DNA of 64,000 nucleotides from Novakomyces olei (Eukaryota). Both the position numbers and the translations under genes were made by a program. Shown piece after piece: positions 1 to 20,116 of this stretch. The stretch lies in NCBI GenBank assembly GCA_016906335.1, contig JADEYG010000001.1:1-64000 (forward strand), given 5' to 3'. The number at the start of each line of letters is the position of its first letter. Position 1 is the stretch's first letter. The notes beneath the pieces were generated by a model that did no database searches, was not told the origin of the DNA, and was given only the letters and a program-made list of their open reading frames with translations.

Positions 1-172
1 CTAACTAACCCTAACTAACCCTAACTAACCCTAACTAACCCTGACTAACCCTAACTAACCCTAACTAACTAACCCTAACTAAACCCTGACTAACCCTGAC
101 TAACCCTGACTAACCCTAACTAACCCTGACTAACCCTAACTAACCCTAACTAACCCTAACCTAACCCTAACC
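1..172. repeat. Telomeric array, 10-bp unit CCCTAACTAA with CCCTGACTAA variants (G-strand TTAGTTAGGG / TTAGTCAGGG)
   Basis: Tandem C-rich repeats from base 1; shorter CCCTAA/CCTAA units at the inner junction (~155-172). Confidence 0.95.
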
Positions 173-2544
173 TTGTCAAGAAGTGCGGCTGGCGCGTTAG
201 TATCAATTTTTTGACTGAGATATCGCTTATCCATTTTAAAAAATGTAATCCATGCTTCGCATGCTTTTTGGCTGTTATTCAATACAAGATCTGGTATATT
301 TGCAAATCCCGTACTGTTACCGTAAACTGAATCGTGCGTAGAAGTCGCGTGATTCGACAGCTGAATAAGGTTTCCCGCAATACCGCTATGAGCCAGATCG
401 TCTTCGTCGCTGCTGTCATCCATATCTCCCAGTGCTTTCTCAAAGTTTTGGTTTGCAAATTTAACATTAATGATTGAAGCCGATATTTGTCGCCATGAAG
501 ACACTGAAAGACTTGGCACACAAGCGTGTGAACAACATTGTGCAAGATATCTTGATAAGTTTCTGGCATCCCATAAAGTACCATTAGACATGAATAAAGA
601 TGGTTGGTCTCTTCTCAACCCTACAATTCCTTCAAGGTAGAATAAAAATGGTTGTACATACACAATATAATTCAACAGCAGATCACCAACATCTTCAGGC
701 AAAAATCGGCTTATAGCTCGCGGTCTTCCAGTCAGATTTTGAGTTTTAGTATACGTCGTCCCAATGACCATTTTGCCATCCTTGATAAAAATATTGCGTT
801 TCCGTGAACCGTTCTTGTACCAGATTGTAGTTGTTTCTGTCCCTCGCAGTGGCGGGGCTGAAATCGATAACAACGTATATGCATACCGAAGGAACATATC
901 TGCGGAATACAAGTAACTTTGTACTTTTGATCGATCCCAATCTCCCATTCTGTCATGAAAAAAAGCCGTTACAATCGTATTCGCTGTCAAAAGCTTATAC
1001 AAATATTTTTCCGTCTGATGTAAATACCGCTGGTTTTCGGGTGCGACACCAAACCACCATCCAAACTCTGTATTGTAAATAAAATCGTATAAATGTCTAG
1101 TGCATAAAAATTTGAATTCGGTGTCAAACATAAGAGCAGTTCTCAAAACTTTGAAAGCTTGCTTCACAGATGAAACGTATAGCCGGGTAACTTCATACAT
1201 AAAAATAGAGGTTTTATGGTATGACACTTGATCTTTGTTTGTGTTCCATATACATTGGTCAGTATTCATATAATATTTTGAGAATTGAAAAAGATAAACT
1301 CTCCAATTCAACAGTATACCGATTGACGTACTCTTCCCCGGATTTAAAAATTGCTCCACCAGAGTATTTAAGCCTGAACTCGTATCTCCTGGTAAACGAT
1401 GCGCTTCTTTGAAAAGAGCTAGTTGCGCACAATAAATCAACCCAGATAGTATTGTATTGAAACTGGTCGGTTTCTTCCATCCTTTAGATGGGTCGCCTTC
1501 ATCCAAGCATGCCCGTGACGCACAGAATCTTAGAATGGGCGAATCAAAATCGTTTTCGTGAATTGGTTGCTGAATGAGACTCAAGCTAATATTGAATATA
1601 AAGGACCGAGCAAGACTCAACATTCCGGCCTTCAAAGCAAGTATGCATCCATTCACATTTAGGTTTCTGCATTCACTTAATTCGTGAGAACAATACTTAA
1701 AGTAATACTCAACTGCACCGGCCCAATACGAAAAATAGCGTTGCCGGGTAGAACTTTGAATTGTTCGCCGAAAATAATGAACTCGGCCTGACTGATCTGG
1801 CACAAAACTGCTCAGTTTGGTTGCCATAGCCGAGGTCATTTTCCCTCCTGACTCGTCGCACATCGCAAAAATCTCTTCGTACATAAAACCAACTTCTTGA
1901 CGTATAAGTACATTATACGATTCGTCCCAACTGTTCAAGATATTCCCGCCTGTAGTTTTTATGTGCACTTTATGAAAACCAAATTTTAGCACCCACGGGG
2001 GTGTATCTCTGTCATCTGAATTGTAATTCATCAAATTTGCTGGTAGAGTTGACTGAGTTTTCAAAATGAAATCTAGAGCAGCAGCAGTGGGGATTTCCGC
2101 TTGTGGTTTATATACGCGAAAATAACGAATAAACTGTTTTTCAGAGAAAAACGACTGAAGTAAGGCACTTTGTATTTCGTGCTTACCCAGTCCATCGCGA
2201 TGGCAAGCAGAGACGTGCTGCTGTAGACATTTTCGAGATGTTGAAGCAACTTTAAGACATATTTTGCAATAGTAACCCTCTTGAACTTTCAAAAAAGGAA
2301 TTCTTTCACACACTTCGCTCAGACTCGGAGTGTGCTTTAAAATCGTTGTCACTGGGGAAACCATCTGTGAATTAGCAGTAACATAAGAAACAACAAGCTT
2401 AAGGGACCCAGACCTGAGTCTATGTGTATGTCTGTAATGCCTTTCTACCGCATTATTTCCAATGCCGGCTTTGAGGCAGACACAACAAATTCTACACACC
2501 ACCAGATGCAAGCCCCCAAATTGCTCAATCTTGACATACTCCAT
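136..2544 (-). CDS. Telomere-linked helicase (TLH)-type N-terminal protein: Zn-finger (DUF3505-like) plus tyrosine-recombinase-like domain; 3'-truncated by the telomere, no helicase domain
   Basis: N-terminal CxxC..HxxxxH fingers; motifs PPLRGTE, RNIFIKDG, YTKT..ISRFLP, SSWRQ, NHATSTHDSVY. The last ~11 codons and the stop are telomere sequence. Confidence 0.7.
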   Translation of the reverse strand: MEYVKIEQFGGLHLVVCRICCVCLKAGIGNNAVERHYRHTHRLRSGSLKLVVSYVTANSQMVSPVTTILKHTPSLSEVCERIPFLKVQEGYYCKICLKVASTSRKCLQQHVSACHRDGLGKHEIQSALLQSFFSEKQFIRYFRVYKPQAEIPTAAALDFILKTQSTLPANLMNYNSDDRDTPPWVLKFGFHKVHIKTTGGNILNSWDESYNVLIRQEVGFMYEEIFAMCDESGGKMTSAMATKLSSFVPDQSGRVHYFRRTIQSSTRQRYFSYWAGAVEYYFKYCSHELSECRNLNVNGCILALKAGMLSLARSFIFNISLSLIQQPIHENDFDSPILRFCASRACLDEGDPSKGWKKPTSFNTILSGLIYCAQLALFKEAHRLPGDTSSGLNTLVEQFLNPGKSTSIGILLNWRVYLFQFSKYYMNTDQCIWNTNKDQVSYHKTSIFMYEVTRLYVSSVKQAFKVLRTALMFDTEFKFLCTRHLYDFIYNTEFGWWFGVAPENQRYLHQTEKYLYKLLTANTIVTAFFHDRMGDWDRSKVQSYLYSADMFLRYAYTLLSISAPPLRGTETTTIWYKNGSRKRNIFIKDGKMVIGTTYTKTQNLTGRPRAISRFLPEDVGDLLLNYIVYVQPFLFYLEGIVGLRRDQPSLFMSNGTLWDARNLSRYLAQCCSHACVPSLSVSSWRQISASIINVKFANQNFEKALGDMDDSSDEDDLAHSGIAGNLIQLSNHATSTHDSVYGNSTGFANIPDLVLNNSQKACEAWITFFKMDKRYLSQKIDTNAPAALLDKVRVRLGLVRVS

Positions 2545-2699
2545 GACTGTTTGGCAAAGTGAATTTACTACCGCTAAGATACATAATTAATAAGCTAAAG
2601 AATAAGAATTACATTACACATAAATGAAATTTCGCAATAGCTTCGTCTTGAATATATATTTTTTGAATATATTTATATTAGTCTCCATGCTTAATAAAT

Positions 2700-3900
2700 A
2701 CTTATATTTATACCATATACATTCCTACATACATTATTCCCCCATACATTAATCCCCATACATCATTTTACCAAACATTATTCCTCCATAACCCTAACCC
2801 CCATTACCATTCTCTATTTTATAAACTTCTTCCCCCAACATGCTATCATTCTCTTATAATAAATTACTAACCCTAACATTCATACACTTAGAACTAAATA
2901 ACCCTAATTCTTCTCACTTTAACCATAGCCCTACCTCCTAACTCCATCAACTTCCATCTGCTTCCCTCAACTCTTCCAAAATCTTTCTTTCTTCATCTCC
3001 CATCACTTTTCCACATCCCCTCACACCCCTTCAATCTATTATTATTCACATTTTCCGCCCTTTTAAAACTTTTACATCATCATTTTTATTTGATCCTTTC
3101 TAAACTTTAACCAAATATTATAAAATACTAAATAATATTTAAACAATCTTCCTTTCAATAACTGTCCTTTATCAAACATTTTTTTGGCAACTTCTACATT
3201 ACTCTATTCCCATTTTCTATTTCCCTTTACTTCCTATCTCAACTCCAACTCTCTCCCTCCCTTTCATATCCAACAATCTCAATATAATTCTCTACTCCAT
3301 TCGATCATAAATAACCCTAACCCTAAATAAATATCACCGTACATTAATCCCCCATACATTAATTCCCCATACATTATTCCCATACATTAATCCCCCATAT
3401 ATTATTATACCATACATTATTATACATACATTATTCCTCCATACATTATTCCACCATATATTATTATACCATACATTATAATGCCATATATTATTATACC
3501 ATATGATTCTACCATATATTATTATACATACATTACTTTACAATAACTTTACAATACATTATTCTACCATATATTATTTACCATACATTATTATACATAC
3601 TTTACTTTACAATACATTATTATACCATACATTATTATACATACATTATTCACTTTACAATACATTATTTTACCATATATTATTATACCACACATTATTA
3701 TACATACATTATTATACATACATTACTTTACAATAACTTTACAATACATTATTCTACCATATATTATTATACCATACATTATTATACCATACATTATTAT
3801 ACATACATTATTCCTATACATTAAATTACCATACATTATTATACTATACATTATTATACATACATTGCTTTACAATAAATTATTCTACTATACATTATTA
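2700..3900. repeat. AT-rich subtelomeric satellite, degenerate ~14-15 bp unit CCATACATTATTATA, with interspersed TAACCCTAA
   Basis: Dozens of CCAT(A/T)CATTATT units; the + strand is almost devoid of G. Confidence 0.9.
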
Positions 3901-4632
3901 TAATGCCACATAAAATGCATCCTGCGCCGTCATGAGCTTTTTATAAATCTTTAAACCCATATATCTTTATAACTAATAATCCAATCTTGTAAACAAATAT
4001 ATATTTCCACTCCTACTGCTCCCCTCTATCCAACCATACACTTTTTGTAAAAACACTTGTTCTTTCGACGTTTTGTCACCTCTACACATGGACTACACAC
4101 TCTTAATTTTTCTTATTTTTCTGACGTTTTTCTTATTATACTTTATTACTATGGGGCTCTCTCTATAATATTTTTATTATATTATCAGATAGCTATAATA
4201 TGTGTAGACCATCTTGTATAATAATTATATTTTATAAATTCAGCAACCCTACCCTCGCCGCAATATGGTTTGCCAATGTTTTGGAATTAAGGCGGAAACT
4301 ATTTTTGCTCTTACGTCGTTCTTACCCCCGTTTATGCCAATTTCCTTAGCATTCCCGCGCAATTTCCCATATTATAATTTGGAATTTAGTCGGAAAATTC
4401 TCCCTAAAAAACCCTGCCTCCACGTTTCTCCTACCATTCTTATTAGAATTACGCCATAATTCGCGGGAATGCTAAGGAAATTGGCATGACCCCCCCCTCA
4501 TACATTAATTATTTTTCGAAATGGAATTATGGCGTAAAGGAAAAGCGAAAACCCTGACTAGAATTATACATAATAAGAATCGCATTACATAAAAATGGAA
4601 TTTCGCCATAATTCCGTCTTGAATATATCTAG
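3860..4632. repeat. Subtelomeric repeat block A: conserved ~400-bp segment plus terminus module ending GAATATATCTAG
   Basis: 3860-4260 is near-identical to 18130-18525 and 19120-19510. 4330-4632 aligns with 5685-5984 and 19575-19874. Confidence 0.85.
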
Positions 4633-5598
4633 ATATAAACCAATATAAAAAAGAAACCGTCGCGCAGTATCAAATAGACCAGCTTTGATTGCAAGTACAG
4701 TCCCCTCGACATTAGCCCTTTGAGCGTCGTCACAGTTCAACATCAGTCGAGTAATGAAAAATCGAATTGCCTGAGCCCAGTACGAAAAATATCTTTTCTT
4801 AGTCGCAGGTAAAGTTGTTCGTCGAAAGTGGCGCACTCGTCCAGAATTGTCCGGCACAAAACTACTCAGTCTAGTCGCCATAGCTGAAGTCATTTTCATA
4901 TTGCTTTCATCAAATATATTGTTATATAAAAGCTCGATTTGTTCATCAATACTGTCAAGCACTGTGGATTCGAAATTGCTCAGGTTTTCCGTTTGTAAAC
5001 AGACTCGATCAAACCCAAACTTCGTGACCCACGGTGGAATGTCTCTTTGATCGACATCACTTTCTGTTGCAGCACTGGGAAGGGTTATAAGGGTCTTTTC
5101 CAAGAACTTTCCTACAACGCCCTCCGCGGCTGAATTTGAGCTTGGTTTTAAACCATCTTTCGCAGCAACACGAAAATATTTCAGAAATTGATTCTCTGTA
5201 AAACAAGTTTGTAGGGGTGAACAAACAATATGATCTTTTGATGTTCGAACAGTATGTTCTTTTGAGATATGCTGCTCAATGACCTTTCGCGATGTTGAAG
5301 CAGCATCATAGCAAAAACTGCAGTAGTAGCCTTGGCAAACCTTTAGAAATAATAACGGTTCAACCACTTCACGCAGGCTCGGCGTGCTCCAATATATATT
5401 CAAAACAGGAGCGATATTCACGTCGTTTGCATTAATTACAGAAAGTGCAATTTGAAGTTCAGTTGACTTTAGCTTATGCGCCTGACGCAAATGCCTTTCG
5501 GCTGCGTTGGTTCCAACCTCGACCTTTACGCATGCCCGACAAGCCTTGCAAGCAACTACCTTTAAACCAAAGGCCTCCTCGATTCCCAAGTACTCCAT
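4585..5598 (-). pseudogene. Truncated paralogue of the 136-2544 TLH/recombinase-like gene
   Basis: Collinear homology (MEY..C..C, STSRK, PPWV.KFGF, KMTSAMAT.LSSFVPD.SGRV, RYFSYWA) stops at 4632; the remaining codons are read from repeat block A. Confidence 0.85.
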
Positions 5599-5639: not shown

Positions 5640-5984
5640 CATGCTGTAATCTATTTTCGATATAATGCGAATCTTATTATTAATAGTGTGAATTTCCTTG
5701 CCGTCGTCGCGATTTTTACCATATATTAACCTGGAATTATGCAGTAAAATCTACCCTCGAAAACCCTGTTTGACTATTTGTTATTCAATTCTTATTAGAA
5801 TTACGCCGTAATTCGCGACGACGAGCAGCAAATTCACATGACCCCCCTCCCATACATTAATTAATTTTCAAACTGGAATTACGCCGTAATTCTACGTAGA
5901 ACACCCTAACAAAAAATATAGCTAATAAAAACTACGATACATATATTTCGAATTACGGCGTAATTCGCGCAGGAATATGTATAG
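5640..5984. mobile_element. Terminus module B (putative end of a recombinase-encoding DNA element)
   Basis: Three GAATTACG(C/G)CGTAATTC palindromes, a 26-bp imperfect inverted repeat, and the terminal GGAATATGTATAG abutting a truncated gag. Confidence 0.6.
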
Positions 5985-8784
5985 CTGCCTGAACCAGCAA
6001 AGCTGAATGGGCATTCTATGACCCACAGAGAATTCCAATCTTGGAGAACCTCTATGGTCAAATGGCTTACTTATGCGAAGACAGGAGGAAATGTTACAGG
6101 AATCTCAGACATTGATCTCATCAGTATGTTTCTGGAATCAAACGCATTAATCTATGCAGAAGAACTTAGAGACAATGACAACTTGACGGCTAACCAAATG
6201 CTGGATCATCTGGAACGAAGCATTGTTCCCAACGATTACCTGCCAAAAGCCTACAGCAGATTTGTTACATTTTCCCAAGGAACGAGAAGCATCAGTCAAT
6301 ATGCTACACAACTTAAGCTCAAGTCAATGGAACTAGAAATAATTAATGAAGCAATATTGGTTCAACAATTCATTCATGGACTCAATGAGAAGATAAAACC
6401 ACAAATAATGGGATCTTTGAGAAGCGCATTTGGCAACCAGCCTGGCAACAATACTGGGATGACGAAATGGAAATGGCAGAGTGTGGTAGAAGTCGCAACT
6501 GGCTATGACTTTACTGCAACAAGACCATACATTGGAAATATCGCTCCAAGACCAAACAATCAACGAATTGAAGCTAGAACAAGCATGTCAGAGAAAAAGG
6601 AGCCAGAGAAACCTTCACTGAGAACGAGATGTACATTTTGTCGCAGAACTGGACACACGTATGAACAATGTTTCAAACGAAAGAATGAATCAACCATTAG
6701 TGCTCTCAAAGATGACGATGAAATGGATAGCGAAGAAATAAGATTGGATTATCAATGCTCTGCTGTTCAAAGCAAAAGCCAACAGTTTCTCGTAAATCTA
6801 CCAATTGAAGTAAATGGTAAAGAGATCAAATGTCAAGCCCTTATTGATACAGGAAGTGACATTGATGTTATTGATTCAAATTTCTGCAATGTTCACAAAC
6901 CAAAGTATGAAGAGAGTGACCACAAAATTCAAATGGCATTTCAAGGATCAAAGACAATCAGCAGATATATGGCTAGAATAAAATTCAAAGGAAATGAATT
7001 AAATTGTGCAGTAGCCAGACTGCGAACTTCTGATCTCCTAATTGGTATGGGAACCTTGAGCAAGTTAGGAGCAATAGTCAACACCAGCAGAAGACAGGTC
7101 AAATGGCAGATGAACAAAGATACAGAAAGCATTTACGAAGACCAAAGCATTCCAGTGGTTAGCTCCATAACAATCGATCCGAAGAAGAAAATTGAGGCCA
7201 AATCAATTACAAATGAAAACGCAATTGATTCAGACAAGGTACTGGAACTCTTACAAGAGAATTTTCCACAAACCTTGATCAAAGAACCTCCAAGCAAGTT
7301 ACCAATTATGAGACCAGTCGTGGCAACTTATGAACCAATTGATCCAAACAAGAAATATAACATCAAAAAATGGTATCCAAGCAAAAAGCTTATGATGCCT
7401 TTAAAGATGAAAATTGATGATCTATTACAAGCAAAAATGATATCAATATCTACAGAAGAACCTAGTGCAATATTATTCCCAATTCTTAAAGACAAAGAAA
7501 TGGTGAATAAACTTACCAATCCGAATGAGATTAAGAATTATTTACGATTTGTCAATGATGCTCGACCTCGCAATACAAATATGAAGCGATTTTACATTCA
7601 AGTACCGCGAATTGACATAGTTGTTCAGGACATAGCCAGAGCAAAGTATCGAACAAAAATTGATCTAAAGGATGCTTTCTTTCAATCTCGAATACAGCCT
7701 GGGCAAGAACATTATACAGCATTCTGGACACCATTTGGTATTTATCAATGGAATGTGATGCCACAGGGTGATCGAAATTCCACTGCAATACAACAACAAC
7801 TAATGGAGGAACTATTCAGACCATATATTGGAATATGGATGACCGTTTATGTTGACGACATAATAATATATGATGACGATGTCCAAGAACATCTGGATCA
7901 CTTGGTACTTGTATTTTGCATCATGGCCAAATGGGAATTGTATGCCAGTCCAACAAAGACCTTTCCATTTTGCAGAAGCTTTGTTGTGTTGGGAAGACAA
8001 ATCAGTGACGAAGGAATCAAAATGACCGACAAGTCAAAAAATTCCATACTAAAATTACAAGCCCCAAAGAACTTGAAACAAGTACAGAAATTGGTCGGAA
8101 TGCTTAATTGGGTATCAACTTTTATACCAAACTTATCCTCTCAAATTTCCATATTCACAGAAATGAAAGAATTTCATTGGGACGAAACGAAGCAAAAAGG
8201 GTTCAATGAAATTAAAAAAGCAGTCGAACAAGACATAGTGCTAAAACCATTTGAACCAGAACCCCTAAACAATGGCACAGAAAAATTGTTCATGGGAATA
8301 GATGCTTCGCTAGTCGGAACTGGAGGATGGCTAGGACAAGGAAAAGAGTGGCAAAGCTGCCGAATAATTGGATTCACTTCTAAGAAATTGGGCACAGCAG
8401 AGTCACATTACCCAGTTCACGAGCTGGAATATCTTGCATGCATCAGAGCATTAGATCACTTTGAAATATATGCCAGAGGGTATCAAGTAAATTGCTTAAC
8501 AGACAATAAGGCGCTAAGTCGTCTTCTCTATTCGAAAAACGTTATGTTATCAAGACGACATCTGAGATGGATGGACTTTTTAAATGAATTTGACATCAAC
8601 ATCATACATGTATCGGGCACGGCCAACGTTTTGGCAGATATATTGTCACGATCGCCTCCTGAATCAAATGTGTCCGCAATTAGCATGGAACAAAGTCCTG
8701 TCACACATCTGGAAATAAAAAATCTTTACCTAAATGATCCGTATTGGGCTGAAGTACTAACTTCGCTGAAAAATACTGATACAA
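5985..8784 (+). pseudogene. Outer element gag-pol, 5' part (gag with CCHC knuckle, protease, RT, RNase H)
   Basis: CTFCRRTGHTYEQC, LIDTGS, YVDD, DAS..G, TDNK. The frame is open from 5985 (LPEPAK) and rejoins 15324 in frame once the insertion and one TACAA are removed. Confidence 0.92.
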
Positions 8785-9173
8785 TGTCACGAGTGTGACA
8801 TGGCCTTAAGTAAGACAGCGAATGCTGCATTACTTAAGGATAAGGACTATATAGTTTTATATAGTATTTCATAGCGATAGCACTAGGTAGTGCTATACAG
8901 CACCACCTTGTGCTATTACTTAGTTCCATAGAAGTCGTAGTGTATAAAAGGCTTCGCGGAAGACTTTTTACACTACGCAATATCATAAGCTACAACGTGA
9001 AGTCTCCAGGTGTCTTAGGAGAATAGGCTTAGCTTCTAGCTGTAGTTCCCTTAGTCTTCACTCACCGGAACCCCTATCGAAAGGCAGCGTGCTATCTGCC
9101 GCCCAAGGGGATTACTCGTTGTCGCGGCTGAACTCAAGCCGTGAGTCACCTAGTTGCGGGCCGACCCGTAACA
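8785..9173 (+). repeat. 5' LTR of inner element (389 bp)
   Basis: TGTCACGAG...CCGTAACA; TATAAAA at 8943. Confidence 0.97.
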
Positions 9174-9175
9174 GT

Positions 9176-9184
9176 ATATTGCGT
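9176..9184 (+). promoter_or_regulatory. Putative self-priming primer-binding site
   Basis: ATATTGCGT is the exact complement of ACGCAATAT at 8975-8983, 32 nt after the LTR TATA; no TGG tRNA-type PBS. Confidence 0.7.
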
Positions 9185-9269
9185 CCACGTATTCGATACC
9201 GGTTCGGATCGAGTGGGTGAAGAGAACGAATCGAGAGGAAGTGCTAGTCAGTCAAACTAGGCTTACAAG

Positions 9270-10193
9270 ATGGAACAAGTTGATGTATCAGAGTTGAACC
9301 GTTTTTACCGAGCAACAGAGGAGAGATTTGCGATAATGGAAGCGGAAAACAAGTCTTTGAAAGAAAAGTTGCGTAGGGGTCAGAACGAGTTGGACCCGCG
9401 CGAACGAACGAAAGTTTTGGAGCCGAAGATGGCTAGTCCGCCCTTGTTCACGGGCGAGAGAAGTAAAGTGGATGAGTATTTGACTCAGGTGAAAATGGTG
9501 GTAACAGCGCAGCCGCAGCGATACGCCACGGACCGTGCGCGAGTTATGTTTGCCGCCTCTTTCCTGAGAGGCATTGCCTTTCGTTGGTTTAAGCCTTTTG
9601 TTGCAAAGAACGACCCGGCAATGCTCGATGATTTTGAGCGGTACTGTGACAGCATCGAGAAGCTGTATGGTGACCGAGACATGCGCGCTTCGGCGCAGAA
9701 GGAGATAAGAAGGCTACGTCAGAAGGGTTCAGTCGCTCAGTATGCGTCTGATTTTGAACGTCTTAGAGCCTATTTCGATTGGAACAACGAAGCGTTGGTG
9801 TCCCAGTTTATGGAGGGACTGAAAGATTCGGTGAAGGACGAGCTCGCTCATTCAGAGCCGCCCACGGAGCTGAGCGAATTGATAGATCACTGCATCAGAA
9901 TCGATACGAGGGTGTACGAGCGTGAAAAAGATAAGTCGCGTTTTCGAGGCAGGTTGGAGCCACGCCGCCCAGAACGTACAAGCAATTACACGCCTATGGA
10001 AATTGACACTGTGAGCGAGAAGAGAGTACCCGAAAGGAAGTCGATGTCTACGGGTGAGAAGAAATGTTTTAATTGCGGAAGGGCAGGTCACTTTGCAAGA
10101 CAATGCAGAGACAACACTGTTAACTTCAAAGGCCGAGAGTATGGCTACGCAGATGAAAACTCACGAGAAGCAAAAAAAAAAGAGAGAGCCTAA
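9270..10193 (+). CDS. gag: Gag (retrotransposon gag domain plus CCHC knuckle)
   Basis: PPLFTGER, LRQKGSVAQY, PMEID, CFNCGRAGHFARQC. Confidence 0.95.
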   Translation: MEQVDVSELNRFYRATEERFAIMEAENKSLKEKLRRGQNELDPRERTKVLEPKMASPPLFTGERSKVDEYLTQVKMVVTAQPQRYATDRARVMFAASFLRGIAFRWFKPFVAKNDPAMLDDFERYCDSIEKLYGDRDMRASAQKEIRRLRQKGSVAQYASDFERLRAYFDWNNEALVSQFMEGLKDSVKDELAHSEPPTELSELIDHCIRIDTRVYEREKDKSRFRGRLEPRRPERTSNYTPMEIDTVSEKRVPERKSMSTGEKKCFNCGRAGHFARQCRDNTVNFKGREYGYADENSREAKKKERA

Positions 10194-10201
10194 TTCAAAC
10201 G

Positions 10202-13200
10202 ATGGTAGAATTGGGCGGAAATGAAAATGCCATCAATGAAGAAGAGCATAGAATTGCGTCTGCACGAGCGGACTATGGGCATTGCGAAGTAAAGGTAGAG
10301 ATCGAAGGCATAACGACGCCCTTGAAAGGTCTAGTTGACTCGGGGGCATCTTCGAATTTCATTCATCCACGTTTGGTGTGGAGGCACAAGATTAAAACCG
10401 AAAGCCTACGCCAGCCTATTGTTCTTAAGGTTGTTGACGGAAGATGCATATCGTCTGGACCGATTCAACGCCAGACAGAGACTCTAAAATGCGTAATTCA
10501 AGGGAAAGAAACTCCTACAAAGTTCAAGGTTACCGAAATTGGCGAACACGACATTATCTTGGGGATTTCGTGGCTTAAAGAATATAATCCGCGAATCAAT
10601 TGGTCTACGTCTACTGTCGAATTCGAGAACAAGGAGCCTGACGTTAAAACGGAGTATGTTTGCGCAACTATAGTGGAATCCGAGTCAGAGCAACCCGGTG
10701 CGGTAGTACTGCCAGAGGAATACCAGGATTTCAAGGACGTTTTTGGCAAGGCAGAGGCAAATCAGCTCCCACCTCATAGGTCGTTTGACCACGAGATCAA
10801 GCTAGAAGCAGACTCTAAAATACCATTCGGACCAGTGTATGCTATATCTAGAGATGAGCAGGAGGAATTGCGAAAATATCTTGAAGAAAACCTTGCTAGA
10901 AGATTCATTGCGCGCTCTACATCGCCAGCCGGAGCCCCAATCCTATTCGTCAAGAAAAAGGACGGCAGTCTCCGTTTGTGTGTCGATTACCGAGCGCTGA
11001 ATAAGATAACAGTGAAGAATAGGTACCCACTACCACTTATTGATTCGCTCTTGGACAAACTATCTGGAGCCAAGTGGTTTACGAAGATTGATCTACGCGG
11101 GGCCTACAATCTTATTCGTATAAAGAAGGGGGACGAGTGGAAGACGGCTTTTCGCACTCGTTTTGGTCACTTTGAATACCGAGTAATGCCGTTTGGGCTG
11201 ACAAACGCCCCGGCCACGTTTCAGGACTTCATGAACGACACATTTCGTGATTTACTAGATATTACAGTTTTGGTTTATCTAGATGATATTCTAGTCTATT
11301 CAAAAACTAAAGAGCAGCACATTTATGACGTACGCCAAGTTTTGGGAAGGCTACGCGATCGAAAGTTATATGCTAAAGGCGAAAAATGTGAATTCCATAA
11401 ACAAGAGGTGTCATTTTTGGGTTACGTATTGTCTGTTACTGGAGTGTCTATGAGCAGGGACAAGACAGAGCCTATTGCGACTTGGCCAGCTCCAAAATCG
11501 GTACATGACATACAGGTATTTTTGGGATTTTGCAACTATTATCGGCGCTTCATACCGAACTTTGCGAAAACGGTGAAACCGATCACGAATCTATTAAAAA
11601 AGGACACACCCTTTTGTTGGAATGACGAAAGTGAGCAGGCTTTTAAAGCATTAAAAGACCTATTTGCTAAAGAAATTATGTTGCGACATTACGATCCGGA
11701 GAAACAATGTGTATTGGAGACTGATGCCTCCGACTACGCATTGGGAGCAGTGTTGCTACAAGAAAATGAAAACGGAAGAGAACCAATTGCATTTATCAGT
11801 CGGCAGATGGAAGCAGCCGAGATAAACTACGATATATATGAGAAGGAATTGTTGGCAATTGTTTGGGCCTTTAGGACTTGGCGCCATTACCTCCAAGGCC
11901 ACCCAAAGAAGATTATCGTTTACACGGACCACCGTAATCTTCAAACTTTCACGACGGCAAAGGTACTGACGCGTCGACAAGCTCGCTGGCAAGAAACGCT
12001 GGCCGAATATAGCTTCGACATCGTTTACAGGCCGGGCATCAACAATGGAGGGGCAGATCCTCTCAGCCGACGGCCAGATTACGCTTTAACTAAAGATGGC
12101 AGCCACAGTAAGGCACAATTCCAGCCATTGCTATCGTCAAGCCAGCTGAAATGCTTTGCAACAGATGAGACCCAGCTTCTTGACGAGAGAAATTATGCTA
12201 AACCAAAGGAACGCAGGAGAATATTGGAGGCGTTCCACGACCACCCACTGGCAGGACATTTTGGCGAGGCCAGAACTCTGGAACTGATCACCAGGAATTA
12301 CAAATGGGACGGTATTACAAGAGATGTAAAGGAATATGTCAAAAATTGCCCTACATGCATTCGAAATAAGGTATCCCGAAGGATCAAAGCCGGCATGCTA
12401 CAGCCACTGAAGATTCCGGACAGGCCTTGGTCGTCAATATCAATCGATTTTATTGTTAAGTTACCTATTTCCGATGGTTACGATTCAATCCTTGTTGTAG
12501 TGGACCGTTTCTCGAAAATGGCGCACTTTATACCGTGCAAGGAAAAGATTTCTGCTACAGAAGTGGCATATTTATTTATTAAGCACATTTTCCGACTACA
12601 CGGCCTCCCCGAAGAAATAGTATCGGACCGAGATACTCGTTTTGTTAGTAAGTTCTGGACTGCACTAGCCGAAAATCTACAAATAAAGCTATGCAAATCC
12701 ACGAGTCATCACCCGCAAAGCGACGGGCAGACCGAAAGAACGAATCAGACCCTTGAACAATACTTGAGGTGTTACATCAATTATAATCAGAACAACTGGG
12801 CACGATTATTGCCGTTAGCTGAGTTTGCTATCAATAATGCACAAAGTGCCAGTACTAAAATGTCTCCATTTTTTATTGCCGTTGGTTATCACCCACGATT
12901 TTCTTACGAGTTTCAAGCCACGAGCAATGTACCGGCCGCAAATGAGTTTACCGCGAAACTCCAGGAAAGATTTATGACTTTACGCGCCGAGTTACAGAAG
13001 GCTCAAGACCGAATGAAATTTTATTACGACGCTAAGCGACGCGACGCCGCTACTTACCAGCCAGGCGACCTAGTTTGGATTAGAAGACAGCACATTAAAT
13101 CCAAAAGGCCGTCAGACAAACTTGACCATACAAAAATTGGTCCCTTTCCCGTATTGGAAAAAATTGGCACGAGCGCATACCGTGTTAAACTGCCCGCGAC

Positions 13201-13471
13201 CATTAGAATCCATCCCGTGTTTAACGAAACACTGCTGGAACCGCACAAAGGAGATCGTTTTTCACGAGACGCGTCCAGTGCAACCGTACCTGACGTTATC
13301 CAAGATGAGGAAGAATTCGAAGTAGACTACATATGCGATCACAAGGGATCGGGCTCGACAAGGCGCTATTTGGTTCATTGGAAGGGTTATACAGAAAATG
13401 ACCGCACATGGGAACCGGTAGCGAACTTAGGAAACGCTAGCGAAGCTTTAGCAGAGTATCTTAAACGCTAA
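10202..13471 (+). CDS. pol: Pol: protease, RT, RNase H, integrase, chromodomain (in the -1 frame relative to gag)
   Basis: LVDSGA, YLDD, TDAS, HHCC, D..D..E (SIDF/SDRD/GQTER), GPF, FEVDYI..YLVHWKGY..TWEP. Confidence 0.97.
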   Translation: MVELGGNENAINEEEHRIASARADYGHCEVKVEIEGITTPLKGLVDSGASSNFIHPRLVWRHKIKTESLRQPIVLKVVDGRCISSGPIQRQTETLKCVIQGKETPTKFKVTEIGEHDIILGISWLKEYNPRINWSTSTVEFENKEPDVKTEYVCATIVESESEQPGAVVLPEEYQDFKDVFGKAEANQLPPHRSFDHEIKLEADSKIPFGPVYAISRDEQEELRKYLEENLARRFIARSTSPAGAPILFVKKKDGSLRLCVDYRALNKITVKNRYPLPLIDSLLDKLSGAKWFTKIDLRGAYNLIRIKKGDEWKTAFRTRFGHFEYRVMPFGLTNAPATFQDFMNDTFRDLLDITVLVYLDDILVYSKTKEQHIYDVRQVLGRLRDRKLYAKGEKCEFHKQEVSFLGYVLSVTGVSMSRDKTEPIATWPAPKSVHDIQVFLGFCNYYRRFIPNFAKTVKPITNLLKKDTPFCWNDESEQAFKALKDLFAKEIMLRHYDPEKQCVLETDASDYALGAVLLQENENGREPIAFISRQMEAAEINYDIYEKELLAIVWAFRTWRHYLQGHPKKIIVYTDHRNLQTFTTAKVLTRRQARWQETLAEYSFDIVYRPGINNGGADPLSRRPDYALTKDGSHSKAQFQPLLSSSQLKCFATDETQLLDERNYAKPKERRRILEAFHDHPLAGHFGEARTLELITRNYKWDGITRDVKEYVKNCPTCIRNKVSRRIKAGMLQPLKIPDRPWSSISIDFIVKLPISDGYDSILVVVDRFSKMAHFIPCKEKISATEVAYLFIKHIFRLHGLPEEIVSDRDTRFVSKFWTALAENLQIKLCKSTSHHPQSDGQTERTNQTLEQYLRCYINYNQNNWARLLPLAEFAINNAQSASTKMSPFFIAVGYHPRFSYEFQATSNVPAANEFTAKLQERFMTLRAELQKAQDRMKFYYDAKRRDAATYQPGDLVWIRRQHIKSKRPSDKLDHTKIGPFPVLEKIGTSAYRVKLPATIRIHPVFNETLLEPHKGDRFSRDASSATVPDVIQDEEEFEVDYICDHKGSGSTRRYLVHWKGYTENDRTWEPVANLGNASEALAEYLKR

Positions 13472-13599
13472 AAAGTTTCATGCTGAATTATTTTATTTGA
13501 TTTTTGTTTAATGACGGCGGTATTTCAACCATACTGTCCTAAATTGCGAGCAGATGTTATTCAACTACTATGCAAACTGTTTTATTATACCGAATATTC

Positions 13600-13601
<2 letters not shown>

Positions 13602-13635
<34 letters not shown>

Positions 13636-13638
13636 GGG
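13602..13638 (+). other. A31 tract followed by G6 inside the inner element
   Basis: Directly visible between pol and the cargo gene. Confidence 0.85.
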
Positions 13639-13825
13639 AAAACTGCGTGTTTGCATCGTTAATATATGTAATGTATGAGTTAGCACGATATAGTCCTAAG
13701 TCACACACACTAGTGCCAAGTCACACACACTGGTGCTTTCTGGAACATTCCCACACAGAAAAACTATAAATACAGTCGCACCCCCCGGTGCTATATCACT
13801 ACTTTACACACATATTTTTGAAATT

Positions 13826-14929
13826 ATGGAGGGACAAGAAATCGACTTGACAGCCGACCTTGAGGAGGGGGGTGAGCGCCCGCAAAAGCGATCGCGGGGC
13901 GCTAAGAATGTTGGAGAGCACATCTGCGCTCTCTGTCACAAAGGTCTTGGCAGAAAACAAGAGCTGCACCGACACCTAAAAGAAGTTCACCACGTTGACT
14001 TTAGACTGGCTGAACTTGTGTCGGAATGGGACCTCCGAACGTCGCGCATGCCGACCCACCGGACGGGTAGGAACATACTTTGGGCCGCGGCGGCTAAGGA
14101 GCATACATGGCTTGAGACCGTTACAGAGTCTTGGAAAGACTGTTTCGAGCGGGAGCCAACGTGGCCGGTCGTCATGGAGGACGTTACGCAACACGACCTT
14201 CAACTTTTTAACATCCGCGACCGAGCAAGATACACGGATATTTCGGTGGCTCGGTTCGTGGCGGGGTTCGTTTACGGCGCGGAGAAAATCGAATGGTACG
14301 CGGCTTACAATGTGCCGCCCTCGACGCAGGGCTTACTAACCTTGAGCCCGAGGGCCCTACCCGCTACAAATAATTACAAAAACCGCCCCGAAACGGACTG
14401 GAGCACGGTGGTCTCTCCGGCTGGGACGATCACGGACATACACGTGGACAACGTATTCTTGAGTCACGTGCTGGTTTGCGTGCTGGGAAGGAAATTGGTA
14501 TTCGCCTGGCCACCGTCGGCTGCGAACCTTGACTACTTCGCGCAGTACCACCACAAGGTGGGGGATATGTTTTTGTACCAGGGCATTCATGAGCTCCAGG
14601 GGCTACATGTTTGTGACCTGAAGAAGGGATTCGGCTGCTACATGGGACCCGGTTGGCTCTATGCAGTGATCTCCTTGTAAAACAGTGCGCTCACTGGTTA
14701 CAGCGAGATACCAGTTGGGCAGGAAAACACTGTAGAACGCCTAGTGAAGTGGGAATTGGAGACACTGTCGGCGGATTCGGACAACTCCGTGGCATTGGCA
14801 AATGTCTACGAGGAGCACACGATTGGGGCTCAGGAATGGAGAAGAGCCAGAGTGAAAGGGGCAGATAGATTAGGTAGAATCAGTAGAGAAGGCCTCAAAG
14901 AATTAGAGCCCACCCTGGGAGGGGGGTAA
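13826..14929 (+). CDS. Cargo gene: C2H2 zinc finger plus JmjC-like (2-oxoglutarate/Fe cupin) protein; one in-frame TAA at 14678-14680
   Basis: CALC..HRHLKEVH; SPAGTITDIHVD; GRKLVFAWPP; GPGWLYAVISL*NSAL. The same frame continues to 14929. TATAAATA at 13765, ATG at 13826. Confidence 0.8.
14917..14929 (+). other. Polypurine tract of inner element
   Basis: GGGAGGGGGG-TAA immediately before the 3' LTR. Confidence 0.9.
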
Positions 14930-15318
14930 TGTCACGAGTGTGACATGGCCTTAAGTAAGACAGCGAATGCTGCATTACTTAAGGATAAGGACTATATAGT
15001 TTTATATAGTATTTCATAGCGATAGCACTAGGTAGTGCTATACAGCACCACCTTGTGCTATTACTTAGTTCCATAGAAGTCGTAGTGTATAAAAGGCTTC
15101 GCGGAAGACTTTTTACACTACGCAATATCATAAGCTACAACGTGAAGTCTCCAGGTGTCTTAGGAGAATAGGCTTAGCTTCTAGCTGTAGTTCCCTTAGT
15201 CTTCACTCACCGGAACCCCTATCGAAAGGCAGCGTGCTATCTGCCGCCCAAGGGGATTACTCGTTGTCGCGGCTGAACTCAAGCCGTGAGTCACCTAGTT
15301 GCGGGCCGACCCGTAACA
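14930..15318 (+). repeat. 3' LTR of inner element (389 bp)
   Basis: Matches 8785-9173. Confidence 0.97.
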
Positions 15319-15323
15319 TACAA

Positions 15324-16783
15324 CTATTGATTTTAAACGAGCACAAGCAAAGTATTATCTAAAAGATGACCTGATACATCTCAAATTTGATAACCGCATT
15401 TGTGTGCCTACAGATTTCACTAACACGATAATACGGGAGTTTCATGATACGTACCATGGAGGACATGGGGGAATGAACAAGACAACAGCTGGAATAGCAA
15501 AAACCTACTATTGGCCAGGAATGTCAAAAGAAATCAAGGAATATGTGAAATCATGTGAGACATGTGCCAAAAATAAGATCACTCCTCACAAACCATACGG
15601 ATTGTTACAAGAAATAGATATCCCCAATACTAGATGGGAAACTATTGGAATGGACTTTATCACTGGACTACCTCTATCTGGTGATGAGCAATATGATGCT
15701 ATTATTTGTATTGTTGACCGACTTACAAAAAGGGCACACTTTTGGCCAACACACACTACAGTCACTGCAAAAGGCACAGCAACTTTATTTCTCAACAGAT
15801 ACTATTGCCTGCATGGACTACCACAAGCCATAATAAGCGACAGAGATGTGCGATTCATGTCAGCTTTTTGGCAACAAATTACAGCCATTCTTCAAATCAA
15901 ATTGAAACCATCATCAAGTTATCATCCTCAGTCGAATGGACAAACTGAGCGAACAAACAGAGTACTAGAAGATTATTTGCGACTATTCACATATGCAAAT
16001 AACAACAGCTTATCATGGCACAAGCTGCTTTCATTTGCTGAATTCAGTTATTCATCAAGCAAGCACTCTGCCATTGGCATGACGCCGTTTGAAGCTGATT
16101 TAGGTTACAATCCAAGAAGCCTAAGTGACCTTGCCATACCTCCAATCACAAACCAAGATGATTCAACATTTCTCGAAACTCTTGAGGTAAACAGAATTCT
16201 TTGCCAGGATGCAATCAGAACCGCACATGAATTATCAAAGATATATGCGGACCAAAACCGAATAAACATTGAATACAACGTCAATGATTCTGTTTATTTA
16301 AGCACCGCTAATATTCGCGAAATTCCTGAGCTTTTCCAAAATCAACTAACAAGGAAATTGCAATCAAAATTCATTGGACCATACAGAATTATAAAAAAGG
16401 TCAGCCCTGTTGCTTACGAATTGGAGCTACCTTCTGCTTTAAAGTATCACCATGTGGTACACATCTCTCAGCTAAAGAAACATACTCCAATGAACAAACA
16501 CAACCAGCGAGAACAACCTAAACCGAAAGCACTCCGACGCTACAAAAACAACACGGAGCTTTATGTCGTCGAAGAAGATCATGTCTGGGTTCGAGGACAA
16601 TCGAGATCGACAACACCAAAACCGGGCTACAAACTAATGTATCGTATTCGCTGGGAAGGTTACCAACCTGAAGACGACACGTGGGAACCAAAGCAGCACC
16701 TAGTACATTCACCCGAATTATTAAAAAGATACAATTCGACACACCTCGAATTAGTGGGGGAGGATGTTAGGAATCAAGATTGA
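15324..16783 (+). pseudogene. Outer element pol, 3' part (integrase plus chromodomain)
   Basis: HHCC (FHD..GGH..C..C), GMDF/SDRD/GQTER, GPY, YRIRWEGY..DTWEP; the stop lies just inside the LTR. Confidence 0.92.
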
Positions 16784-17662: not shown

Positions 17663-18084
17663 CGCACTGACATCACCCACCGCATCAGCGAAGGATACGC
17701 CACGATTCAAAGCTCTGGGACAGAGCACAGAGGGGAGGACCAGCATGAAAGGGCTTAATCCCAACATGGTGTTATGATAACCCAACATTTGGCTATCGCC
17801 AGTTTATCGCCTTGTAGCCATTTAAACCACTAACCTAAAGGGATTCTTATAGAAAATGACCTTCAAAGGGACTGGAGGATGCATTTGCTCGACCACCCGT
17901 GGTCTATAAATAGGGACCCATTCGTTCATAGTTCTACGTAGTTTAATATTAATCTTAGTGCTTGAAATCAAACAGCCTCAGGACGCCGTTATCCTATAGC
18001 TCCGCCTATTATTATAACAGCGCGCTGCTATCTTGGGATAGTTAGGTTACTTAAATTATATATATATTGGTTTGAGTCCTAACA
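17663..18084 (+). mobile_element. 3' part of a fourth LTR related to the outer element's LTR
   Basis: CTATAAATAGGGACCCA..CATAGTTCTA resembles 16981-17010; ends GAGTCCTAACA, the complement of a TGTTAGGA.TC start. Confidence 0.55.
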
Positions 18085-18873
18085 TACCATACATTATAAC
18101 ATATATTATTATACTATACATTATTATACATACTTTACTTTACAATAAATTATTCTACTATACATTATTATAATGCCACATAAAATGCATCCTGCCCCAT
18201 ACATGAGCTTTTTATAACTCTTTAAACCCTTATATCTCCATACCTACTAATCCAATCTGGTAAACAAATATATATTTACTCTCCTACTGCTCCCCTCTAT
18301 CCAACCATACACTTTTTGTAAAAACACTTGTTCATTCGACGTTTTGTCACCTCTACACATGGACTACACACTCTTAATTTTTCATATTTTTCTGACGTTT
18401 TTCTTATTATACTCTATTACTATGTTGCTCTCTCTATAATAACTATATTATATTATCAGATAACTATACTATGTGCCATGTGCGATGCAATAATATTATT
18501 ATTTATAATATACCCTTACCCTACCCCAAGCAATGGCTGTGATGAATTTATCAAAAATCCACAGCCTATCAATATTTTGTCGAAATGTCAGCTTGCGCTA
18601 CTGTATTATGCAATAGCATCGCTGTATTCAGCGATATTTCGTCGAAATGTCGCAACTTTTTTAGGGGAACTTTTAGCAGTTTAATATATGGCAATCCACT
18701 AGCGCCTTGCGACATTTCGCCGAAATATCAGTGATAGGGTTTTCTCGAATTTTAGACAATGCAATTATTATACAAAAAAAATAATACCAGCTGACATTTC
18801 GTCGAAATGTCGCTAGTAATAATAGCTACAAATTATTGATTTTGCGGCATAATGCGCACTGGAATATGTATAG
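18085..18873. repeat. Subtelomeric repeat block D: satellite, conserved segment, GACATTTCG.CGAAATGTC palindromes, terminus GGAATATGTATAG
   Basis: Homology to 3830-4260; the last ~55 bp match 19816-19874. Confidence 0.8.
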
Positions 18874-19874
18874 TAAATAACCCTAACCCTTTCCTCATAC
18901 ATTATACCCCAATACATTATCTCAATAAATAACCCTAACCCTAATTGAACAACTCCACCATACATTAACCCCCCATACATTAATACCATACTATAATCCC
19001 TATACATTATCCCCATACATTATTCCTCTATACATTATTCCTCCATACATTATTCTTCCATACATTATAACGCCATACATTATTATACCATACATTATTC
19101 CTCTATACATTATTATACATACATTACTTTACAATAAATTATTCTACTATACATTATTATAATGCCACATAAAATGCACCCTGGGCCATTACATGAGCTT
19201 TTTATAAATCTTTAAACCCATATATCTCCATAACTAATTATCCAATCTTATAAACAAACATATATTTACACTCCTATTGCTGCCCTCTATCCAACCATAC
19301 ACTTTTTGTAAAAATGCTTGTTCATTCGACGTTTTGTCACCTCTACACATGGACTACACACTCTTAATTTTTCTTATTTTTCTGACGTATTTCTTATTAT
19401 ACTCCATTACTATGGTGCTCTCTATAATATTTATATTTTATTGTCATATAACTATAATATGTGTTGTATAATGAATATATTTTATAAATACAACAACCCT
19501 ACCCTTGCCGCCATTCTCTGCCCTGACATTATGCTGTAATCCTGTTTCAATGTGACGCTCTTTTTATAGCCTCCACTGTGAATTACCTTAACATACCCGC
19601 GCTTTTTCCCATACATTAACGGCGCATTATGCAGTAAAATCCGTCTCTGAAAACCCTCCCTACAAATTTCTACTGCATTTCTTACTTACATTACGCCGTA
19701 ATTCGCGCGTATGTTAAGGTAATTAGCATGACCCCCCCTCCATACATTAATTTATTTTTTGGACCGCGTTACGCCGCAAAATCAAACCGAAAACCCTGTC
19801 CAATTTTCAATGCTGTAATAATAACATAACAAATTATTGATTTTGCGGCATAATGCGCGCTGGAATATGTATAG
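18874..19874. repeat. Subtelomeric repeat block C: satellite, conserved segment, full terminus module; inner edge of the repetitive subtelomere
   Basis: Collinear with 3310-4632; unique sequence begins after TAG at 19874. Confidence 0.85.
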
Positions 19875-20116
19875 TCACATGATACAAAACTCATGTGCGA
19901 GTATCGGGTTTAAGCCATATAGAATAACGGCCTCAGACACTTGAGGCCGTTACATGATGAGGCCTTTATGGACACAATATGAAAGGCTCTCTATCCCCGA
20001 TTTGGAAGAAAATGAAGGACAACCACTCTTTCCTCCAGACTATAAGTCGCACGGCTTTGAAGAAGGTACATTTTCAATAGACTTATCGATCCACACTAAC
20101 GCTCTAAGATTGTACT

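Follow-up and report, generated by a model that had tools for sequence, protein, structure and literature searches.

Telomere-linked RecQ helicases (TLH) contain a domain, the TLH domain, that was reportedly defined in a paper of 2009. The accessible portions of a 2024 preprint on Fusarium place TLH genes at the extreme chromosome ends of many fungi and of a choanoflagellate, and the genera reported in the portions of the literature consulted are Magnaporthe/Pyricularia, Ustilago, Schizosaccharomyces, Metarhizium, Fusarium and Botrytis, together with a choanoflagellate. According to those portions of the 2024 Fusarium preprint and to the accessible part of a 2022 preprint on Botrytis, the protein comprises two C2H2 motifs, ~700 unannotated residues and a RecQ helicase, and the name TLH domain is given to the family-specific ~250 residues preceding the helicase, to which these texts, as far as accessible, assign no function. 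The stretch analysed here, called the window, consists of the first 64,000 nucleotides (nt) of contig JADEYG010000001.1 from Novakomyces olei (assembly GCA_016906335.1, forward strand). Its first gene, the open reading frame (ORF) 136..2544 on the minus strand, is the 5' part of a TLH gene, encoding the front ~790 residues of the protein. The TLH domain very probably has the fold of the tyrosine recombinases, as judged from predicted structures, and the most fitting description for it is that of a new, very divergent offshoot of the tyrosine-recombinase superfamily with a new fusion partner.

The window copy resembles fungal TLH in its position at the very chromosome end, in its two N-terminal C2H2 motifs and in its TLH domain of ~250 residues, which is followed by a RecQ helicase in full-length relatives. 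It differs in that its helicase has been lost to the telomere, and in that the TLH domain is here assigned to the tyrosine-recombinase fold. This assignment was obtained from two structural models. The first, generated by AlphaFold2 from an 83-row alignment, covers all 802 residues with a mean predicted local distance difference test score (pLDDT) of 84.7 and a predicted template modelling score (pTM) of 0.74, and the second, generated from an 85-row alignment, covers amino acids (aa) 500-790 with a pLDDT of 82.9. When the whole model was submitted to Foldseek, XerH, Cre and XerA were ranked on top, weakly (E 0.09-0.3). Structural alignments of the whole model run across both domains of Cre and XerH. 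When the domain model was submitted, XerA was the best match (E 8.6e-3, probability 1.00), and the listed rows were tyrosine recombinases or type IB topoisomerases, save an HIV-1 integrase filament at rank 36. The clearest fold test was provided by VIA-align, which is independent of Foldseek and was run against representatives (48,161 chains). Ranks 1-29 were all occupied by chains of the tyrosine-recombinase fold, including XerH (9.3), XerD (9.3 and 8.8), a staphylococcal integrase (8.9) and Cre (8.7), and unrelated chains appeared only from a score of 3.6.

The catalytic-domain fold that marks the superfamily is thereby present in the predicted structure, and the all-helical region ahead of it, taken together with the catalytic domain, looks in the models like a two-domain clamp of the Cre/Xer type. 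An initial annotation of the window had proposed that the N-terminal half of this protein is an integrase. The integrase-type fold is now predicted at high confidence, while its location had to be revised to the middle of the protein, aa ~210-775 of ~1450 in the full-length form. The conserved core of the catalytic domain, aa 535-775, corresponds to the published TLH domain. Its predicted secondary structure fits the canonical layout, with Arg567 after a long helix, Lys600 after strands 585-588 and 591-598, Arg685 at the start of helix 681-695, and His732 and Tyr741 flanking helix 734-741. Additionally, a language-model comparison returned look-alikes from a single clan (Phage_integrase, NDC10_II, ResT-TelK_cat, DUF3435 and Integrase_2, with scores of 0.81-0.85), which serve as leads only. 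An acidic insertion that splits the domain after the Arg II helix varies in length among relatives and stays acidic.

The putative active site was traced by following five residues through the family. The initial annotation had nominated Arg567, Lys600, Arg685, His732 and Tyr741 as a tyrosine-recombinase set, and all five are found at the codons claimed and in the order claimed. The spacing of nine between His732 and Tyr741 is likewise as described, this being the sole H-x8-Y in the ORF, and the His of the HxxR motif is indeed replaced by a serine, Ser682, three places ahead of Arg685. In a single sequence such a motif is no more than chance, as a loose R..K..R..H-x8-Y pattern arose in 1084 of 2000 residue shuffles of the window protein (54%). 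The motif acquires meaning because its residues are conserved across relatives. An exhaustive HMMER scan recovered 1310 homologous proteins at E<=1e-3, among them 338 at 1e-10 and 27 at 1e-30, and conservation was counted in the best 150 of the 1310, each total being the number of rows that cover the position. Arginine occupies position 567 in 138 of 144 rows and position 685 in 133 of 134, lysine occupies position 600 in 142 of 146, histidine occupies position 732 in 114 of 123 (arginine in 7), and tyrosine occupies position 741 in 121 of 123.

The full R-K-R-H-Y set is retained in 99 of the 115 rows spanning all five positions, so that the five residues nominated by the initial annotation prove near-invariant across homologues. 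They fall among the 32 of 591 query positions (aa 200-790) with at least 80% identity, and in the 83-sequence alignment A3 the twelve columns at 90% or more consist of these five together with P565, E570, N578, R583, R613, P632 and W658. The same set occurs in 33 of 34 related metagenome loci, where R685 was preset by the search pattern and the other four are independent. Family-wide conservation of Arg567, Glu570, Lys600, Arg685, His732 and Tyr741 is evident at the level of sequence, and the catalytic residues of the TLH domain appear to be under strong purifying selection. The superfamily order of Arg I, Lys, Arg II, His/Trp III and Tyr is conserved. Position 684, next to Arg II, is aromatic throughout (W 87, Y 44, F 3), and position 686 is Q or H. 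Further residues conserved in the family have no obvious classical counterpart, namely Arg583 (146/146), Arg613 (144/147) and His599, beside Lys600, which is present in 117 of 146 rows and is replaced by Thr in the window copy. These three may play a part in catalysis at the active site or in the binding of DNA.

The TLH residues were subsequently mapped onto Cre and lambda Int. In the Cre family alignment R173, K201, H289, R292, W315 and Y324, which we take to be the catalytic residues of Cre, are invariant. Profile comparison by hhalign matched the TLH domain to the Cre family at E 0.0017 (probability 15%) and to a 76-sequence Cre-like profile at E 0.0011 (probability 21%, score 32.3), whereas 3 reversed and 20 column-shuffled control profiles scored 7.9-17.3. 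In the confident part of the alignment, Arg567, Glu570 and Lys600 were paired with Cre R173, E176 and K201. At the C-terminal end, where confidence is low, Tyr741 was paired with Cre Y324, and His732 fell one column off W315. The His-Tyr spacing of nine recurs in lambda Int (H333-Y342) and in Cre as W315-Y324. In ten structural alignments, the helix ending at residue 198 of the domain model ends at Cre 304, lambda Int 323, HP1 Int 295 and human topoisomerase I 602. By range arithmetic, twelve residues back from this common end, Arg685 coincides with R292 of Cre and R311 of lambda Int.

The 76-sequence Cre-like profile was assembled from 26 of 51 Cre-search rows and 50 of 68 genome-contig loci, the latter being Trp-type relatives of a Cre-like protein. 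The 18 loci left out comprise nine of L083-L141 without a frame of at least 260 aa, plus L142-L150. Among the Cre-search rows, those left out were four constructs or fusions (P0152, P0154, P0155 and P0201), one fragment (P0165) and another 20 natural rows (P0157-P0160, P0162, P0163, P0168, P0169, P0173, P0174, P0176, P0177, P0181, P0184, P0186, P0187, P0189-P0191 and P0194). A scan of viral contigs with lambda Int returned copies 99-100% identical, which were also left out of the profiles.

Compared with Xer/Cre-type recombinases (XerA, XerH, XerD and Cre), which are its best structural matches over both domains, the TLH protein shares the order of Arg I, Glu, Lys, Arg II, His/Trp III and Tyr, the accompanying secondary-structure elements and the His-Tyr spacing of nine. 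It differs from them in having neither detectable similarity at the level of hidden Markov models (HMM) nor the HxxR His, and in carrying large insertions, the acidic loop included. Moreover, the TLH domain is eukaryotic and telomere-linked, follows zinc fingers and has a RecQ helicase as its fusion partner. Cryptons, DUF3435 (the Starship 'captain'), Ndc10 and QRICH1 share with it a eukaryotic, mostly fungal, setting and the tyrosine-recombinase fold. Ndc10 and QRICH1 appear in the structural list, and the language-model comparison gives the DUF3435 and NDC10_II clusters scores of 0.81-0.84, to be treated as leads only. The telomere resolvases ResT and TelK also have the tyrosine-recombinase fold and act at chromosome ends, but their matches are far weaker than those of Xer/Cre (ResT Foldseek E 0.38; look-alike scores 0.81-0.83), and the ends they serve are hairpins, whereas the window ends in an ordinary repeat telomere.

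The remainder of the gene conforms to the TLH family. Its coding part proper extends over nt ~172-2544 (aa 1 to ~791), and the last ~11 codons and the stop are telomere repeats read as protein. As in other TLH genes, it lies next to the telomere and is transcribed toward the end, both N-terminal C2H2 motifs are present, and the TLH domain belongs to the region upstream of the helicase, aa ~310-780 being homologous to the 1310 proteins. Pfam recognized OrsD (PF12013) on aa 12-115 at E 7.3e-5 and 23.6 bits, under the 26.6-bit cut-off, and nothing beyond this sub-threshold match in the ORF. Six full-length relatives of 1379-1635 aa were scanned, and DEAD and Helicase_C were found downstream in all six and OrsD upstream in five. 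The family profile, searched against the PDB, matched RecQ5 (E 4e-59) as well as BLM, RecQ1, WRN and bacterial RecQ (range E 1e-59 to 1e-45). On this comparison the helicase half of full-length relatives is RecQ-type, and these relatives demonstrate the fusion of a recombinase-type domain to a RecQ helicase. The alignment of the window protein to its relatives reaches residue ~775-780, and in the closest relative, P0002, the DEAD-domain match (Pfam) begins ~55 residues beyond that aligned end, so the window copy stops just short of the helicase. The RecQ helicase domain of the family is missing here, with no helicase-coding piece throughout the 64-kb window. A record look-up for 20 relatives named 5 records in four clusters, three as 'hypothetical protein', one as 'MAG: hypothetical protein' and one as 'P-loop containing nucleoside triphosphate hydrolase protein', and no name mentions a recombinase.

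The overall explanation that we favour, with moderate confidence, is a TLH front with zinc fingers and an active Cre/Xer-like recombinase clamp, which has a helicase partner in the full protein. With similar confidence, we take the TLH domain to be an active enzyme that breaks and rejoins DNA. At this locus the chromosome, at least in the assembly, would have broken inside the TLH gene, the helicase half being lost and the end capped with telomere repeats. The domain order left would be a two-zinc-finger domain, a helical core-binding-like domain and a catalytic domain of the tyrosine-recombinase/type IB topoisomerase superfamily. In the putative reaction, attack of Tyr741 on the phosphate would give a 3'-phosphotyrosyl link, the two arginines (Arg567 and Arg685) and His732 would hold the transition state, and Lys600 would protonate the leaving 5'-oxygen, the missing HxxR His being either dispensable or replaced. 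RecQ helicases drive the branch migration of junctions, which tyrosine recombinases form and resolve. In the full protein, the recombinase-like domain and the helicase might act jointly on telomere-repeat DNA by strand exchange, and the outcome might be copying or movement of the TLH cassette from one chromosome end to another, or the resolution of intermediates of telomeric recombination. These last two steps, joint action and outcome, are the least certain. The truncated window copy could supply the recombinase-like part at most.

The initial annotation had further suggested that the integrase would supply the enzyme for the terminus module, and such a role is a reasonable hypothesis, to be held tentatively. 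A rather doubtful extension regards TLH as a new kind of single-polypeptide recombination machine, a tyrosine recombinase fused to a RecQ helicase, and TLH cassettes as telomere-targeting mobile elements, the tyrosine-recombinase counterpart of the Helitron Rep-helicase, in which the recombinase would exchange strands within telomere repeats and thereby insert or copy the cassette onto ends. Helitron Rep-helicase and reverse gyrase both unite a DNA breaking-rejoining domain and a helicase in one polypeptide. The likeness is by analogy only, as their folds (HUH and type IA) and helicase families are others, and no homology is implied. Insertion of a cassette within telomere repeats would leave short telomere tracts of the same polarity on its inner side, as seen in the related locus L179 and upstream of the window gene. 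L179 (1-7183) carries an intact family member of 1525 codons at 599-5176, flanked by two TTAGGG units, one at 7-18 (580 bases upstream) and the other at 5288-5299 (110 bases downstream). Past the downstream unit, degenerate minisatellite rich in A+T and degenerate telomere repeats take up ~1.6 kb, and TTAGGG repeats close the contig. Such context amounts to hints; ordinary homologous recombination and the repeated healing of broken ends would give the same picture.

Several results weigh against an active recombinase that moves TLH cassettes. Searches of Pfam, PHROGs and NCBIfam with the query and 23 relatives brought up no recombinase family, and the domain profile A4 gave 0 matches in the PDB at E<=10. 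The hhalign probabilities for the Cre-like profiles are just 15-21%, R685 is left unpaired with Cre R292, and a C-terminal sub-alignment against Cre pairs the stretch around His732 with the HxxR motif of Cre, a mispairing that probably arises because the third position of Cre is a Trp instead of a His. For a lambda-Int family profile of 104 sequences, hhalign returned a probability of 0.4 and a score of 17.5, approximately the control range. The HxxR His of the superfamily is absent, position 682 being S in 37, A in 34, Q in 25, R in 19, L in 9 and M in 3 of 135 rows, with His not among these six commonest residues. Telomere-repeat seeds flank the gene in a minority of related loci only, with sense seeds in 4 of 29 against 2 antisense upstream and in 4 of 25 against 1 downstream. 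Beside these stand further negative searches. Pfam Phage_integrase (PF00589), DUF3435, NDC10_II and ResT-TelK_cat gave no match even at E<=10 with the query and the 23 relatives, the single window protein found two chance matches only in the PDB (E 0.73), and the whole-family profile found helicases only. Alignment of the family by hhalign to the single Cre or lambda Int sequence gave no match, and a word-indexed homologue search with the whole protein scored 0 of 7186 candidates. In the literature searched, which left subscription papers and supplements outside, no link between TLH or the TLH domain and tyrosine recombinases was found.

Type IB topoisomerases and telomere resolvases also lack the HxxR His, which is the least critical of the Cre active-site residues, so its absence from the TLH family is no strong argument against catalysis. 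A catalytically dead protein seems unlikely, in which a fold inherited from a recombinase would be retained solely for binding DNA or as a clamp that directs the RecQ helicase to chromosome ends, in the manner of Ndc10 or the Crypton-derived QRICH1. Equally improbable appears an active swivel like that of topoisomerase IB, which would nick, rotate and reseal DNA and thereby relieve torsion or decatenate for the RecQ helicase, a one-polypeptide analogue of RecQ-Top3 or reverse gyrase that neither integrates nor moves DNA. A chance motif combined with a modelling artefact, in a family-specific helical domain unrelated to recombinases, would accord with the frequency of the loose motif among the shuffles and with the failure of every sequence library to detect a recombinase, but it is very hard to credit when the nominated residues make up 5 of the 12 columns at 90% or more, an unbiased fold search gives 29 chains of one fold ahead of any other, and the hhalign score is ~2x every control with Arg I and Lys aligned exactly.

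For the favoured reading, an active recombinase-like clamp in the TLH domain, the fold assignment and the conserved active site would turn a long-puzzling gene family into one with a testable enzyme activity. The question raised for the bench is which DNA substrate, if any, TLH cleaves and reseals by means of Tyr741. If the reading is true, the fusion of recombinase and helicase would be a new enzyme architecture, and subtelomeric TLH cassettes may be telomere-homing mobile elements or a built-in recombination back-up for telomere maintenance. The features of the locus are collected in Table 1.

Table 1. Positions of the TLH gene, its predicted domains and residues, and telomere-related features in the 64,000-nt window
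Feature	Position	Strand	Remarks
Terminal telomere array	1..171	.	16.5 copies of a 10-base unit, CTAACTAACC, with CTGACTAACC variant
TLH open frame	136..2544	-	802 aa; first gene of the window
N-terminal domain with two C2H2-type zinc-binding motifs	2200..2511	-	aa 12-115; Cys-Cys...His-His at aa 17-41 and 93-115
All-helical region	1270..1917	-	aa ~210-425; superposes on the N-terminal core-binding domain of Cre/XerH, with insertions
Tyrosine-recombinase-type catalytic domain (predicted)	220..1263	-	aa ~428-775
Arg567, proposed Arg I	844..846	-	In PPLRGTE; family motif G-x-P-x-R-x-x-E
Glu570	835..837	-	E in 141/144 rows
Extra conserved residues	745..798; 706..708	-	aa 583-600; aa 613; best-150 alignment
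Lys600, proposed catalytic Lys	745..747	-	Directly after the strand pair aa 585-598
Arg685, proposed Arg II	490..492	-	In SSWR; family motif [aromatic]-R-[Q/H]
Acidic disordered insertion	385..432	-	aa 705-720; separates the helix of Arg II from those of His and Tyr; pLDDT <50
His732, proposed His III	349..351	-	Counterpart of Cre Trp315
Tyr741, proposed nucleophile	322..324	-	Nine residues past His732
Interstitial (CCCTAA)2-like tracts	2786-2801, 2866-2878, 3311-3327, 18512-18523, 18877-18891, 18929-18945		Terminal-array polarity
Second diverged partial copy	4585..5598	-	337 aa, 43% identical to aa 1-323 of the TLH ORF

The ORF reads directly into the terminal array at nt 171, which bears out the telomere linkage described in the initial annotation. 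The 10-base unit of this array presumably resembles the telomere repeat of Yarrowia-clade yeasts, and the units nearest the junction are irregular and look like the 6-base CCCTAA type. Across the window G+C content is ~40%, and reading frames are long and intron-free, as would suit a yeast. In three public runs from two studies, contigs agree with the window from nt 170 inward only. On the other side of nt 170 they carry non-telomeric sequence for at least 255-545 bases, and the reading frame stays open there over the 30 letters shown. The two best of these runs each differ from the window by one base over ~2.4 kb. Since the public contigs run on past nt 170, an untruncated version of the same gene exists, and the junction is specific to the strain or to the assembly. 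Either telomerase healed a recent break in the strain that was sequenced, or the junction was created by the assembly. No Logan contig bridging the telomere-ORF junction was seen, and as contigs drop rare variants this is uninformative both ways. Among related loci, the contigs of L154 and L179 terminate in telomere repeats downstream of the gene.

The second, diverged copy of the TLH front contains neither a recombinase-like nor a helicase part; its OrsD match is above threshold, and it ends in a subtelomeric repeat module. This module recurs at 2540-2720, 4500-4680, 5850-6017 and 19740-19920 and includes a single telomere-like unit, which marks the homology break upstream of the TLH gene at ~nt 2598, 54 bases before the ATG. 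In public contigs of two runs, telomere repeats are joined to nt 2599. The first 21 kb contain six interstitial telomere-like tracts, every one with the polarity of the terminal array and none with the opposite polarity, and they may be relics of former chromosome ends. Telomere seeds were also considered as the borders of TLH cassettes, a proposal that was set aside as weakly supported, with sense seeds present in a minority of related loci (4/29 upstream and 4/25 downstream).

Many metagenome contigs start 370-590 bases upstream of the gene homology, namely L153, L154, L156, L167, L168, L170-L172, L174, L178, L179 and L181. The contigs of L156, L167, L168 and L171, and also that of L159, start at a common motif. 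These common starts upstream of the gene suggest the boundary of a repeat or of an element.

The subtelomeric region further contains nested Ty3/gypsy retrotransposons at 6018-16783. An apparently intact element, with gag at 9270-10193 and a pol containing a chromodomain at 10202-13471, is flanked by 300-base repeats that are 100% identical (8783-9082 and 14928-15227). It is hosted by an older Ty3/gypsy element, whose halves lie at 6018-8798 and 15473-16783. An A+T-rich 15-base satellite, CCATACATTATTATA, is present in ~38 copies at 3340-3902 and 18075-19190, and a 274-base repeat that follows the satellite occurs in three copies, at 3931-4204, 18202-18475 and 19192-19465.

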